Source of the DNA: Escherichia coli
Lineage (GTDB): Bacteria > Pseudomonadota > Gammaproteobacteria > Enterobacterales > Enterobacteriaceae
Reading direction: 5' to 3' (one strand)
Length of the DNA: 64,000 nt
NCBI RefSeq assembly: GCF_001677475.2
Contig: NZ_CP015229.1
Positions within the stretch are counted from its first letter, which is position 1. The number at the start of each line of letters is the position of its first letter. The position numbers were made by a program. Below are positions 51,626 through 60,600 of this stretch, piece by piece.

Positions 51626-54600
51626 TAAATCAGTCGCGTACTTTGTCCGCTTTCTCCCGGGCTTCCCGCTCGAGAGAGAAAATAATCCGCTGTAATTGCC
51701 GCTCCGCCGTCGGGCTGACGTTAAGAAAACGGAAGCTCAGACGGGGAGTGGTGATGGTTTCATTCTTGCCATCAATCACTTTGCGCTCGCTGATGGAGAT
51801 TAACTGGGCGTCAAAGTGAAAAACACCCCATTGCCCCATGTTGACTTCAATCTGAGCGAAGCGCATACCTTCGTGCAATCCGGCAGGCTTTGCTGTTTCC
51901 AGTAATGCGCCCATGCCACCTAACGACAAATCATACAGGCGGAAACGTAACGTACTGTTATCCGCCAGTTTGGTCTGGCAAAAATAAGGCGGATGGAGTG
52001 GGGCGGAGATGCGGAAATATCGGCGTCGTTGTACAAACCATAAGGTGGGAGGCGGTACGGTAATAAATGCCGGAAGCTGCAAGTATTCACTCTGCTGTAG
52101 TTGTTCAACAGTAAACTCGACTTTCGCACCCTGAGTTTCGGCGGTAATGGTAATGTGCTGTGCCTTTAGCACGGCGATGTTGTCTTCGGCTTGACTGCCG
52201 AAATCCAGCACCAGTTTATCCGGGGTTATTGCCAGTATTTTGCTGATCAGCTGCCCGCCATTCCAACTGAGACGCAAAGGAATTGCGGCTTTGTGCAAAT
52301 CGCGTAACACACCCAGGACGGCTAACGGATTTTGTTTCAGGAACTGCTCATGGTAATGACTCACGCGGAAAAACTCCTGACTGACAAACTGTCTTTGGTT
52401 TATCGGTCATAGTTAACAAAACTTAATACAAATGCGTGAATATTTTTTACATGTTGTTCTTAAATCAGCCGACAAACGCCCAGCATCGATCCCGCCCTTG
52501 CCTATACTTAGAGCGTTGACGTAAGCATTTCTTGCGTCCGATTCATCGAAACGAGGGCCTGAACATGGGAATTATTGCCTGGATTATTTTTGGCCTGATA
52601 GCCGGCATTATCGCCAAGCTAATCATGCCGGGGCGTGATGGTGGTGGATTTTTCCTGACCTGTATTCTCGGGATAGTCGGTGCGGTGGTCGGCGGCTGGC
52701 TGGCGACCATGTTTGGCATTGGCGGCTCCATCAGCGGTTTTAATTTGCACAGCTTCCTGGTGGCGGTGGTGGGAGCTATTCTCGTTCTGGGCATATTCCG
52801 CCTCCTGCGAAGAGAATAAGATTTTCATAAGGCGGATAGCGATACAGATGCCGCTATCCGCTTTCACATCAGAACGTATACTCGACACCTGCCCAGAAAT
52901 TGCGACCTTCTTCAATAAACCCTTCACTGTAGGCATATTGGGTATCAAACAGGTTATTGACCGACGCATTGACGCTGAAGCCATGACCTAAGGTGTAATC
53001 GGCTCGAATGTGGGTCACCGCAAAACCGGCGGCTTTTTGTGAACCGTCACTGTTGCTGTAGCTGGAGGAACGCGCCTCTTCCGACAGCGTTACGCTTAAC
53101 GGCTCCCATGGTTTGAGTGTCATCCATGCGGTCATTGTCTGCGTTGGCAGATCGGTTATCTTGCCGATGTCTTTGCGTTTGGCGTCAGCGTGGATCAGGG
53201 CGTAGCTCAATCCTACATCCAGTATATTGCTGATTTTCCCCTTAATACCGGCATCCAGACCGCTGTAATCCACCGTGCCGCTGTTCTGGTTTTGAATGGT
53301 ATCGGCATCGATATTGTGCGAGAGGATGGCATCACTCACCCGGTTATAGTAAACGCTGACCTCAAATCCCCAGTCGTGCGTGAAGGCACCATTCCAGGTT
53401 AAATCCACCCCCCGCGCGCGTTCCGGCTTGAGCTGCGGGTTAACAATCGCTATCTGGTTATACGCAGGTTTGGACGTGGTATAGCGTTCTTTCAGCGTCG
53501 GAAAGCGTGTGCGGTCATAGTACGAAAGCGCCAGCGTGTCTTCATTGGCAAAGTGGTATTTCCCCATCACCTGCCAGTTAAAAGCTGACTGATTGTTGTC
53601 GTCATAATGGGTGATGCTGCCATCTTTCTCGTGTTTTTTCGCTTCTACGCTATCGCGCCAGTCATAGCTGATTCCAGCCACGACATCGACATTATCGGCA
53701 GCAGTCCATTGATATTCACTGGCGAGCGACCAGGTCCGATCTTCATAGCGATCGTAAGCGGCGTGCGGCGCACCTTTTTCCCGGTGTACGTCATCTTTCC
53801 AGTTAACGGCAAACGACAGCAGATCGTTTTCACGCACATCGGCTGCCAGTTGTAATCCGGCACCGTCGCTGTAATCGGAGTAATGGCTGTAGCTACCTTT
53901 TTTATTTTTCAAATCAGCCAGCGAGTTGTACATCATCAGCGTATTTTCAAAGGTGTCGCGATACAGCCGACTTTTCAGGGTAAAACGATCGTTTAGTTGG
54001 GTCGTTCCCTGATAATAAAAACTTTCTTTGTCATACTCTGGCCACTGCCAGTAGCGTGATTTTTGACCACTATTTCCGCTGTATGGCGGGTTATCTTTTT
54101 CACCATCCTGCTTAATGTAAGTCAGCGTGTATTCATCGTTTTCGCGCGGTGTAAAACCGAGCTTCACAATGCCGCGTTTATCATCAGCCGATGAATTAAT
54201 CATCTTGCCGTGTTTTCCTGCAATATCATTATTTACACCATGCGGCAGACCGAGAAAATCCTGCTTTAGCTGGCTACCGCTGACTTGGAAATACCCAAGA
54301 TCGCTGCTGGCGGCAAATGAAGCATGCATATCGTAGGCATTGTCCTGGCTACGGCTCCATCCCTGGCGATATCCCAGACTTGCTTCCAGAGGTTTTGTTG
54401 GCTTCTGGGTGGTGATATTAATGGCTCCGCCCATCTGATTAGGCCCCTGAAGCAGCGACGAATACCCTTTGGAAACTTCGACTGCCCCCAGATTGTTGGT
54501 CAGAATCCGCGCCAGATCGAGGTTGCCGTCATAGGGGACATAAATGGGCACACCGTCGAAATAGACCGGCACCTGCCGACTATCAAAGCCACGAACTTTT

Positions 54601-57600: not shown

Positions 57601-60600
57601 CCAGAGAACGGGCTTCGTCGTCGGAAAGCGTGAGTAAATTCATGCGCCAGCGGAGAAAAAACAGGGGCAAGGAGCCTATGAGAATGATCGGTGCAGCATA
57701 GCAGAGATCGCGTAAGGTCACGGTGGACAGTCCCCCCAGCAACCAGAAGGTAATTGACGGTAACTGGGTGTAAGGATCGGCCAGCGTTTTAATTAGCGAT
57801 ATCCCCGCTCCGCACAACGTTCCTAACGCAATGCCTACCAGCACCAGGGTTAAGATCGGATCGTGGCGGGTCACCCGACGCGTAATCAACCAGACGCCCG
57901 CGACCACCATCAGCCCGCCGCAAAATGCGTACAGCTGGATGTAAACAATGGATAATCCCCACAGGATTGCCGCGCAGGCACCAAGTCCGGCACCGGCGGA
58001 GACGCCTAAAATATCCGGTGAAACTAAGGGATTACGCAACATTCCCTGATAGGTGGTTCCGGCTCCTGCCAGCGCCGCGCCCAGTAACAGCGCAGCAAGA
58101 ATACGCGGCACGCGGATTTGCCAGAAGACAATTTGTTCCTGCACAGACACATTTTCTTGACGAAGAATTAGCGCCAGCAGTTGCTGCATATCGAGATGAT
58201 AAGCCCCACTTACGGCGGCAAAAGTGATACTGATAGCTGCCAGCAACAAAATACATCCGTTTACGATTCTCATTAGCTCGCCACCAATTTTTGATAGTCG
58301 GCATCACTGAGTGAACAATGCCAGAACAGTTGGGCGTAATGCTGCATGTCATTTTTAAACTGGCGATTGATGGCGGGCTCCAGCCAGGCGTGAAGTCTAC
58401 GTAATCCCAGAAGACGGTTGATTCCCGGCGGGGCATCCAGCCAGCCAAAGGGCAAGCCACTTAAAAATAAGATGCGTTGTTCCGCAACGGCTTTCACGCC
58501 CTGCCAGAGAGGATCACGACGAATAAAATCTGCAGTAACGGCCTCCTGAACCAGAATAATATCCGGCTGCCAGCGCAGGAGATTTTCCATGGAAACCTGT
58601 GTCAGGCCGTGGCGATCGGCTATTTGCGCGACGTTGTGCAAACCTAATAATTCCGCCGCCTCGGTATGCAACGAACCCTGTAAGCCCGTTTCCAGCCCTC
58701 GGGGACCGCGCGCAGCATAAAAGCGCAGGTTAGCGGCGGGTGAGGTGGCGAATGCCTGAGCTTCACCAACGAAGTGGCTGGCGAGATTGGCTTGTTCTGC
58801 GGCGCGGTGCTCTTCGCCTAACGTTTTGCCAAGCGTTGTTAACTGTTCTGCTGATTGCGCCAGTTTTCCGTTAAGCAATAACCAGGGGATTTGTGTCTGT
58901 TCGCTAACCTGCCGTGCCTGGGAGATCCAGGTTTCATCCGTATTGCCGCAATCAACGACCAAATCGGGATGTAACGCCATAAGCCCTTCCAGCGAGAGTG
59001 TGCTGGCGCGCCCGGCGAGTCGTCCCAGCCTGGGTAACTGGCGAATGTGCTCTGGCAATGGAATTAATGCCTGACGGGCAAAATCAAAAGAGGAAAAACC
59101 GACCATTTTTTCTGGCGCGACAGCCAGCAATAGCAAATCGGCGGGCGCGCCTGCGCTGACGATGCGTGTAATGTTTTGGGCTTCGGGAAGAGATTGCGAA
59201 GCAAAACGATTAACTGTTTGTGAAAAGGACGGTAGAGACTGCAGGAGCAGGGTAGATGCTAGTGCCTGCGCAAACGTCCGTCTGGTTATGGGCATGGTGA
59301 ACATCCTGAAAAGCAAAATCGATATATACTTGCATATATAGCGATAAAAATCATGTTCAATATCAAAGTTTAGCTATTGAAAACATGAAGATGTGACGAC
59401 TTCCGCAAGCCTGTTGACTCTCTCTATCATTAAAAATGTATTTATCAGGTGGCTAATATTATTTAAATCATTTAAGGCTAAATTATTTAAATATGAATGA
59501 CATTATTGTTTTTTTATCGTCCGCGGTTATGCGATGTTGAAGTTACTTGTTTTATAATGAGCGATTTTTGATATCTCACCGAGAAGATTATCAGCATTCT
59601 CTCGTTTCAGTGTCGTGAATATACTGTTACCGGAGGTAAAAAGAATGCTGGGGGTTATACAAAACCTATGTTGTTGTCGTCCGGACTCACCGCTTGCTGA
59701 TAGTAAGCAGCGTAACCAGAAGTTACCGCAACAAGACTTTGAGGATTTTAAGAACGACGTTATTAACGTCATTAACAACAATGAAAACATTTATTTTCTT
59801 CGAGAGGATAATTTACTGAATGCGTTTATTCGAACGTGCAAAAAAACAGATGATAACAGTTACAGAAATATGATATTTACGCTTTATTTTGATAACGACA
59901 TCTATGGAAACAGGATTATCAAAGCATCGCTGAACGGTGGAGAGTTGCAGTCATTAAGCACAGGGTGTAGCAATGATAACATTCTCCATTTTATTAATGC
60001 ATTTCTCATTCGGGTAAAATTTCCTCTACCTGGACGCATAAAACCGGAACTCTCGCCAAAAGCCGGGCACTCCGAAGGAATTGACGCGTTGCGCTGCTCT
60101 GTAACGGCGTTAACGCAAGCCATTTATTTCGCCAGCGACAATCCGCAGAGAACCAAACGCATCAGGAAACGACTGAGCACAATAAATACTGTATTGATCA
60201 ACATATTATACTGACACCTCCAGCACGCAGTGAGAACACACTGTATCATCAGCGAATCTTACCACTGCGGATCTGGTTGAACGACTTTCTGAGCGAAATA
60301 AGTCGGTTCCCGGCAACAACAACAGAATCCTTTTTTAATTATTGTTTCATTGTTTTTGGTGTTGTTCAGAAAATAAATATTTTAGATAGTAGCCAGTCAG
60401 AGGTTAAAAAGGGGGCTAATAGTGAGACGGCTTTGGCTGCGCTTATTGAACATTTAGAATTGCTCAATCCTTCTGACAGATTAAGCCCAAATACCCGTTT
60501 GGCAATGCTTCAGTTACGCGAAGAGGAATGGTCTGAATTCTTTTATTGGTTGCTAAATTCTCTGGAGTGCCTGGATTATGTGATCATTAATTTAACTCCA

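Follow-up and report, generated by a model that had tools for sequence, protein, structure and literature searches.

The gene cluster known as prrA-modD-yc73-fepC was first described in a pathogenicity island of Escherichia coli CFT073 (Guyer, Kao & Mobley, 1998, cited in PMC1890555). The same cluster is present in O157:H7 Sakai as ECs1693-1699 (S-loop 83/OI-55), where it was "proposed to be involved in iron uptake" (PMC1890555), and in avian pathogenic E. coli (APEC) BEN2908 as GR9 (6382 bp, 1.24 Mb), "possibly mediating iron uptake" (PMC12928451). Here we analyse the copy found in a 64,000-nucleotide stretch of E. coli contig NZ_CP015229.1 (assembly GCF_001677475.2), hereafter the window, in which the listing of open reading frames (ORFs) places six co-directional genes on the minus strand at 52869-59316, between ymgE and treA. 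They encode a periplasmic binding protein, a permease and an ATPase of an ATP-binding cassette (ABC) importer, an S-adenosylmethionine (SAM)-dependent methyltransferase, ModD and a TonB-dependent receptor. The cluster already has a name and is not new; gene order, products and size are those of prrA-modD-yc73-fepC of uropathogenic (UPEC), enterohaemorrhagic (EHEC) and avian pathogenic strains, with 97-98% DNA identity. What is new is a strong in silico case for assigning this "iron" cluster to the ModE regulon, as a TonB-dependent system related to the molybdate importer MolBC-A. Published accounts present it as a putative iron system borne on a pathogenicity island or a strain-specific loop; in the present analysis it is predicted to be ModE-controlled and appears to be ancestral at ymgE-treA. 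A literature search found no functional study of the cluster, although a prior report of its ModE site, for instance in a regulon database, is possible.

MolBC-A of Haemophilus influenzae (HI1470-HI1472) is a type II importer of molybdate and tungstate; it takes in molybdate in vivo, and molybdate represses molB (PMC4031551, citing Tirado-Lee et al., 2011). It has in common with the E. coli cluster a FecCD-type importer, a Peripla_BP_2 binding protein and an adjacent modD, to which the E. coli cluster adds a TonB-dependent receptor and a methyltransferase. The ModABC/ModE system of E. coli K-12 shares the predicted regulator and the operator geometry, and ModD is often the fourth gene of modABC operons elsewhere; however, ModABC is of type I, its ModA is unrelated, and it has neither an outer-membrane receptor nor the two enzymes. 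In Pseudomonas aeruginosa the outer-membrane protein IcmP acts with a secreted ModA for molybdenum (PMC11734730), again a dedicated or energised outer-membrane step for this metal, but the proteins are unrelated, and the E. coli cluster lacks type VI secretion and has its receptor in an operon with a type II importer.

A predicted ModE operator ahead of the operon

We consider it probable, though well short of certain, that the operon is a ModE-repressed, TonB-dependent system for the acquisition of molybdenum (or tungsten) which is on when molybdate is scarce. Molybdenum or tungsten is proposed as the cargo because a perfect, phylogenetically conserved ModE operator is combined with the molybdenum context of ModD, the permease and the binding-protein family. 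The initial annotation of this DNA had held that the substrate could not be read from the sequence; the operator and this context do point to a metal. Among the classes of cargo it had listed, pyridine or corrinoid salvage found no specific support, while a metallophore-type cargo stands as a possibility.

The consensus for E. coli ModE is ATCGNTATATA-[N6]-TATATANCGAT (PMC545781). Ending 22 nt upstream of the ATG of the binding-protein gene, the window carries ATCGCTATATA-TGCAAG-TATATATCGAT as read on the minus strand, which agrees with the consensus at 20/20 specified positions; the runner-up in the 64-kb window scores 14. Of the core TATATA-N6-TATATA, one occurrence is found in the window against 0.09 expected. 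The experimentally known operator of K-12 modA, 18-45 nt ahead of its ATG, reaches 16/20 when scored in the same way. We regard this as a strong in silico case that the promoter of the cluster carries a predicted ModE operator with a geometry like that of K-12 modA.

The conservation of the box was followed in orthologous loci. A scan with a ModD alignment, taking one genome per species, gave 80 loci which were annotated locally with phmmer; with further loci and the window itself, the set totals 1.53 Mb, in which the 250 nt before a molybdenum-cluster gene were counted as its upstream zone. These zones make up 7.5% of the sequence scanned, yet 72 of the 76 ModE sites scoring at least 16/20 fall within them. 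The same six genes are found in 42 loci of the set, from Escherichia, E. albertii, Citrobacter, Symbiopectobacterium, Serratia, Enterobacter and Proteus as well as Pectobacterium, Affinibrenneria, Erwinia, Morganella, Providencia and Ignatzschineria. A ModE box precedes the start of the binding-protein gene in 34/42 of them, centred 22-48 nt upstream in all but one Pectobacterium locus, where the centre is 172 nt before that start; the boxed promoters include those of Escherichia, E. albertii, Citrobacter, Serratia and Enterobacter, and also Proteus, Pectobacterium, Erwinia, Morganella and Providencia. In half of the six-gene loci (21/42) the receptor gene has a box of its own, the centres of these second boxes lying 4-66 nt upstream of the start codon. 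Beyond the six-gene arrangement, ModE boxes lie upstream of modA-modB-modC-modD operons (Yersinia alsatica, Photobacterium, Actinobacillus) and of a lone modD in Photobacterium damselae, and boxes of ModE type are found in Haemophilus loci too.

If the operator functions as proposed, scarcity of molybdate would take ModE off the DNA and the operon would be transcribed. The receptor, energised by TonB, would then concentrate a molybdenum or tungsten species across the outer membrane into the periplasm, where the binding protein with its twin-arginine signal would capture it and hand it to the importer; the MolBC-like type II permease and ATPase would move it into the cytoplasm. There, ModD and the translationally coupled methyltransferase may act in a molybdenum-handling step shared with ModABC systems.

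Several points weigh against this interpretation. Molybdate is small enough to pass through porins, and a TonB-dependent receptor with a type II importer suggests a bulkier cargo. Many of the 42 six-gene loci are closely related, so the counts given above overstate their independence. With MolA the binding protein shares only 26% identity, in an alignment of 229 residues that covers 60% of its length. ModE also activates some promoters, and the direction of control is read here from the position of the operator only; moreover, a simple sigma-70 scan called no promoter overlapping the box, a -10 element over the left half-site being placeable by eye only. The cluster has been called iron-related in the literature (PMC1890555, PMC12928451), and MolA itself binds molybdate only weakly (PMC4031551).

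The transport proteins and their molybdenum context

Among proteins of solved structure, the permease is most similar to H. influenzae MolB/HI1471 (217 bits, 41% identity), ahead of FhuB (173 bits), BhuU (165), HmuU (164) and BtuC (143); its score against the curated BtuC family, 236 bits, is below the cut-off of 461. All NCBIfam ABC ATPase matches of the ATPase likewise fall below the curated cut-offs. The binding protein scores 29 bits against FecB-like (cut-off 320) and 22 against IsdE (cut-off 299). Its closest solved relative is 4PAG (97 bits), followed by MolA/HI_1472 (36 bits), and an AlphaFold2 model (mean predicted local distance difference test, pLDDT, 87) gave 4PAG, TM0189 and MolA, in that order, as Foldseek matches: structural-genomics entries without a known ligand come first, then MolA, then a mixture of iron, nickel and haem binders. 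The protein belongs to the fold class of MolA, which is among its top structural matches, but is nearer to 4PAG. It carries a twin-arginine (Tat-type) signal within 59232-59295 (e.g., TRRTFAQ or NRRxFL); the RR motif is kept in 15 of the 17 orthologues listed, and because this signal is conserved we suggest that the binding protein would be exported in folded form.

The receptor has an N-terminal signal peptide and a TonB-box-like DTLTVWS. Its scores lie below cut-off for all of the curated families matched, namely TonB-siderophore (127/223 bits), TonB-hemin (125/317) and BtuB (80/600). Sequence matches in the PDB were confined to the plug domain at E about 1e-6; a likeness to BtuB, FhuA or ChuA/ShuA was rejected, since it amounts to this plug similarity.

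The relatives of these proteins are found in company which repeatedly involves molybdenum. Haemophilus loci contain a receptor and a binding protein-permease-ATPase-ModD set, followed by a genuine MolA-MolB-MolC (613 bits for MolA against 3PSA), and in H. influenzae Rd modD (HI1473) adjoins molABC (PMC3928620). The E. coli permease is 61% identical to the Haemophilus modD-adjacent permease as opposed to 41% to MolB, and the E. coli binding protein 41% identical to the modD-adjacent set as opposed to 26% to MolA. Because the E. coli proteins are nearer to this other Haemophilus set, the E. coli importer is, as judged from these identities, a paralogous sister of MolBC-A and not the orthologue of HI1470-72. 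In Pectobacterium a gene for a di-Mop molbindin directly precedes the operon.

The gene for 4PAG, from Sulfurospirillum deleyianum, comes directly after a bona fide modE, and its neighbours are exbB-exbD-tonB, a FecCD permease, an ATPase and a receptor. ModE boxes of the E. coli type (17/20) stand before both the exbB-exbD-tonB-permease-ATPase operon and the receptor operon. Formate-dehydrogenase genes are also nearby. A Desulfuromonas relative is encoded beside a helix-turn-helix regulator with a domain like a molybdate-binding protein.

Two further features of these loci may be recorded. The Sulfurospirillum locus (L089) contains, at 13060-15924 on the minus strand, a 954-aa gene with one in-frame stop codon, adjoining ferredoxin-type and cytochrome-b-type genes; it probably encodes a selenocysteine formate dehydrogenase, i.e., a molybdenum or tungsten enzyme beside an uptake locus. 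Both this locus (at 9041-10822) and that of Desulfuromonas (L090, at 13915-15735) encode a radical-SAM protein of about 600 aa, which in Sulfurospirillum also has a Peripla_BP_2-like region; neither locus has ModD or the methyltransferase.

ModD, the methyltransferase and the form of the cargo

ModD is an orphan enzyme family that has been known since the description of the Rhodobacter mod operon. The protein of the E. coli cluster matches TIGR01334 over positions 1-277 of 277 with 503 bits (cut-off 179), while its 136 bits against the NadC family TIGR00078 are below the cut-off of 198; its best PDB match is the quinolinate phosphoribosyltransferase (QPRTase) of M. tuberculosis. ModD thus shares the fold and most active-site residues with NadC but constitutes a family of its own. 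Over 18 diverse ModD sequences, the equivalents of QPRTase Arg139, Lys140, His161, Arg162, Glu201 and Asp222 (ModD R130, K131, H152, R153, E195 and D211) are invariant, and Arg105 is replaced by a nearly invariant Lys94, a conservative change; Lys172, however, is replaced by an invariant Phe163, a radical change. From the 1QPR work we take Lys172 to be the quinolinate-binding residue and the residues retained in ModD to be those on the catalytic, phosphoribosyl pyrophosphate (PRPP) side. Because the catalytic residues are invariant but Lys172 has become Phe163, ModD is probably a working PRPP-binding protein with an altered acceptor pocket, not an isozyme of NadC. The model of the methyltransferase (pLDDT 89) is equally like many small-molecule methyltransferases.

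Across many phyla, annotation of the loci places ModD in modA-modB-modC-modD operons. Fusion proteins occur as well: in P0141 and P0149 ModD takes the position of the TOBE domain of a ModC-like ATPase, and in P0170 it is joined to Mop domains. Fusions of the methyltransferase to ModD were considered and rejected, the long homologues P0141 and P0149 being the ModC-like ATPase::ModD fusions just mentioned. The order modE-modD-modABC is found in Geobacter sulfurreducens (PMC2700814), and ModD of Zymomonas mobilis is induced together with nitrogenase (PMC8600466). The methyltransferase and ModD genes are coupled by an ATGA overlap in every case, and the pair occurs by itself, with neither receptor nor importer, in Edwardsiella (L004, L037, L038, L044) and Leminorella (L048); an 18/20 ModE box precedes the pair in 2/4 of these Edwardsiella loci (L037, L044). 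Because the pair occurs without a transporter, and ModD alone accompanies free-oxyanion importers, we favour a role in the cytoplasmic handling of molybdenum that both kinds of importer would have in common, although this is an inference only. More tentatively, ModD and the methyltransferase may catalyse a PRPP- and SAM-dependent step on molybdenum or tungsten, either freeing the metal from an imported organic carrier or making a small-molecule molybdenum carrier.

In two loci (L007 and L070) modD lies between modAB and a receptor of another family, near modE and Mop genes. This second, unrelated family of TonB-dependent receptors (L007, 5522-7759; L070, 6241-8568) is found inside modE-modABC-...-modD clusters of other Proteobacteria, and it seems that molybdenum loci have taken up outer-membrane receptors on more than one occasion.

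The strongest alternative retains both the regulation and the metal but supposes that molybdenum or tungsten is imported on an organic carrier, a "molybdophore" such as a catecholate, a pyridine-carboxylate or thiomolybdate, which the two enzymes would modify in order to release or recycle it. We regard this as possible but distinctly the less probable. TonB-dependent receptors and type II importers usually take bulky chelates, the fold of the binding protein groups also with siderophore, nickel-histidine and haem binders, and the two enzymes are translationally coupled inside the operon; ModD retains its PRPP-side catalytic residues, and the S. deleyianum and Desulfuromonas loci pair a like transporter with a different cytoplasmic enzyme, the radical-SAM protein described above. 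On the other hand, ModD is common in modABC operons, which serve the free oxyanion, and is fused to ModC-like ATPases; the methyltransferase-ModD pair of Edwardsiella and Leminorella dispenses with receptor and importer, the two Edwardsiella loci with a scoring ModE box included; no carrier-biosynthesis genes are found nearby; and the paralogous neighbour MolA binds the bare oxyanion (PMC4031551). We slightly favour the free oxyanion over a chelate as the cargo.

A quite improbable alternative reverses the sense of the regulation, with ModE-molybdate activating the operon for import of something needed at high molybdenum, for example a cofactor component, or for discrimination against or detoxification of tungstate. 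ModE is a dual regulator according to its RefSeq product name, there is no clear sigma-70 promoter over the box, and in H. influenzae MolBC-A is reported to operate when molybdate is high and not when it is low (PMC4031551). The end of the box, however, is 22 nt from the start codon, which is the geometry of the repressed modA promoter, and the second boxes, at 4-66 nt before the receptor starts, leave no space for the downstream promoter that an activator site needs; molB, moreover, is repressed in a molybdate-dependent way (PMC4031551). We infer repression, not activation, of the E. coli operon.

Slightly less probable still is a Fur-type uptake system for iron, siderophores or haem, to which the ModE-like palindrome would be irrelevant. 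In its favour are the published descriptions (PMC1890555, PMC12928451), the RefSeq name of the binding protein ("iron ABC transporter substrate-binding protein"), the weak, sub-threshold matches of the receptor to siderophore and haem receptor families and a 13/19 match to the Fur consensus at 59346-59364, the best at the promoter. Matches of that quality, however, number 43 in the window, and the best Fur matches in 15 orthologous promoters score 10-14/19, the level of AT-rich background, whereas the ModE box is kept there; Fur regulation was rejected for want of any conserved site. All iron-related curated families score below cut-off, and the associations with ModD, Mop, modE and MolBC point to molybdenum. 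A Fur box and a B12 riboswitch had both been put forward in the initial annotation as signals to look for: only the background-level Fur matches turned up, and a search of Rfam over 52300-61000 at E up to 1 returned nothing, the cobalamin riboswitch included, so that control by a riboswitch or other RNA was likewise set aside. Its view that this is no ordinary siderophore, haem or B12 importer is borne out by the receptor scores, far below all cut-offs, together with these two results.

Least likely by some distance is a salvage importer for corrinoids or pyridines (NAD precursors) with a NadC-like ModD, as the QPRTase fold of ModD, the sub-threshold BtuC and corrinoid-ATPase matches of the permease and ATPase and a weak CpaM match of the methyltransferase are outweighed by the lack of a riboswitch, the scores against BtuB (80 vs 600 bits) and NadC (136 vs 198), the invariant Phe in place of the quinolinate-binding Lys172 and a regulatory signal that is that of ModE.

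Molybdoenzymes, among them nitrate, dimethyl sulfoxide/trimethylamine N-oxide and tetrathionate reductases and formate dehydrogenases, power anaerobic respiration in Enterobacteriaceae, a process important to the growth of these bacteria in the inflamed gut and the urinary tract. If the preferred reading of a ModE-repressed molybdenum (or tungsten) system is true, the cluster that comparative-genomics papers count as an iron system of EHEC, UPEC and APEC would be a second, energised route for acquiring the metal. It would also give a physiological setting to MolBC-A, a low-affinity and poorly understood system, and would make ModD tractable for study in E. coli under a clear inducing condition. 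Should the two enzymes catalyse the PRPP- and SAM-dependent step suggested above, this would be the first dedicated "molybdophore"-type pathway of uptake and processing known from enteric bacteria, and about 40% of E. coli would have it, EHEC, UPEC and APEC among them. Molybdenum uptake and virulence have been reviewed (PMC7759655); neither that review nor the 2025 paper on ModA (PMC11734730) mentions the cluster, ModD or a TonB-dependent route in E. coli.

Arrangement, distribution and origin of the locus

The coordinates of the cluster and its surroundings are collected in Table 1. Family searches agree with the six-gene content given in the initial annotation, and the several start/stop overlaps it described are found at 3/5 junctions. 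Gene starts were corrected from the junction sequences and from the RefSeq annotation of an orthologous island, with whose gene lengths they agree; the ATPase, for example, had been listed as an over-extended ORF of 298 aa, and the RefSeq gene in the orthologous island is 759 nt. The genes are tightly packed. Binding protein and permease overlap by 1 nt (TAATG), permease and ATPase by 4 nt (GTGA) and methyltransferase and ModD by 4 nt (ATGA), while a 9-nt gap containing AAGGAA separates the ATPase from the methyltransferase and one of 25 nt separates ModD from the receptor.

Table 1. Features of the cluster and of the adjoining DNA (positions within the window; aa, amino acids).
Feature	Position	Strand	Remarks
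Periplasmic substrate-binding protein	58273-59295	-	340 aa; ATG start; MPITRRTF...; Pfam PF01497 Peripla_BP_2
FecCD-family (type II) ABC permease	57293-58273	-	Family search
ABC ATPase (published "fepC")	56538-57296	-	252 aa; GTG start, overlapping the permease stop
Class I SAM-dependent methyltransferase (published "yc73")	55716-56528	-	270 aa
ModD, QPRTase fold	54865-55719	-	284 aa; TIGR01334
TonB-dependent outer-membrane receptor (published "prrA")	52869-54839	-	656 aa from ATG; Plug and beta-barrel
Predicted ModE operator	59318-59345	. (not assigned; letters read on minus strand)	20/20 consensus match
3' 24 nt of receptor gene (..AGVEYTF*), K-12 deletion scar	52869-52892	-	K-12 alignment
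Low-GC (guanine plus cytosine) segment with 199-aa ORF (59615-60214)	59372-60298	+	Between operon promoter and ycgY-like ORF
ycgY-like ORF	60277-60801	+	174 aa

Of 5426 complete E. coli genomes searched by megablast, 2131 have the cluster at ymgE-treA, with a DNA identity of 97-98%. Twelve matches to the island region are on plasmids, and some genomes carry it in up to three places; second copies thus exist, which is consistent with the pathogenicity-island copy reported for CFT073. K-12 is negative, its map running ymgE-ycgY-treA without the six genes, just as the initial annotation had stated, and the variability of the cluster among E. coli is confirmed by these counts.

The same annotation had taken the cluster for an accessory insertion, a view which the comparisons overturn. 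Homology between K-12 and the window extends up to 52892 and resumes at 60300, with 52893-60299 replaced by 43 bp; K-12 keeps, beside ymgE, the last 24 nt of the receptor gene (..AGVEYTF and the stop codon), and these form the left-hand limit of the variable segment. In E. albertii collinearity extends over all of 52000-61998, and the 199-aa ORF and YcgY have homologues there in matching order, and in Citrobacter an intact ymgE directly follows the receptor gene in 8/9 loci, the ninth (L018) having a disrupted copy further away. Because E. albertii and Citrobacter have the cluster at the corresponding site and K-12 carries a deletion scar, the locus is, on these alignments, ancestral; K-12 lost the cluster by deletion, and different E. 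coli lineages lost different parts. A horizontally inserted island was rejected on the same grounds and also for its composition, as the six genes have a GC content of 0.48-0.58, like their flanks, and the ORF list for 52.8-60.3 kb contains no integrase or transposase.

Island-positive E. coli genomes are without 59372-60878 of the window, i.e., the 199-aa ORF and ycgY, both of which the window retains. No megablast match to 59372-60298 was found in the 5426 complete E. coli genomes; this piece has a GC content of 0.37-0.44, and it is an ancestral one, lost from the sequenced E. coli genomes and kept in the lineage of the window. The product of the 199-aa ORF has no NCBIfam or PADLOC family and no similarity to YcgY, and a homologue of 69% identity lies at the same place in E. 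albertii. The ycgY-like ORF is 174 aa long here as against the 146 aa annotated in K-12, and the point at which homology to K-12 resumes, 60300, lies inside it.

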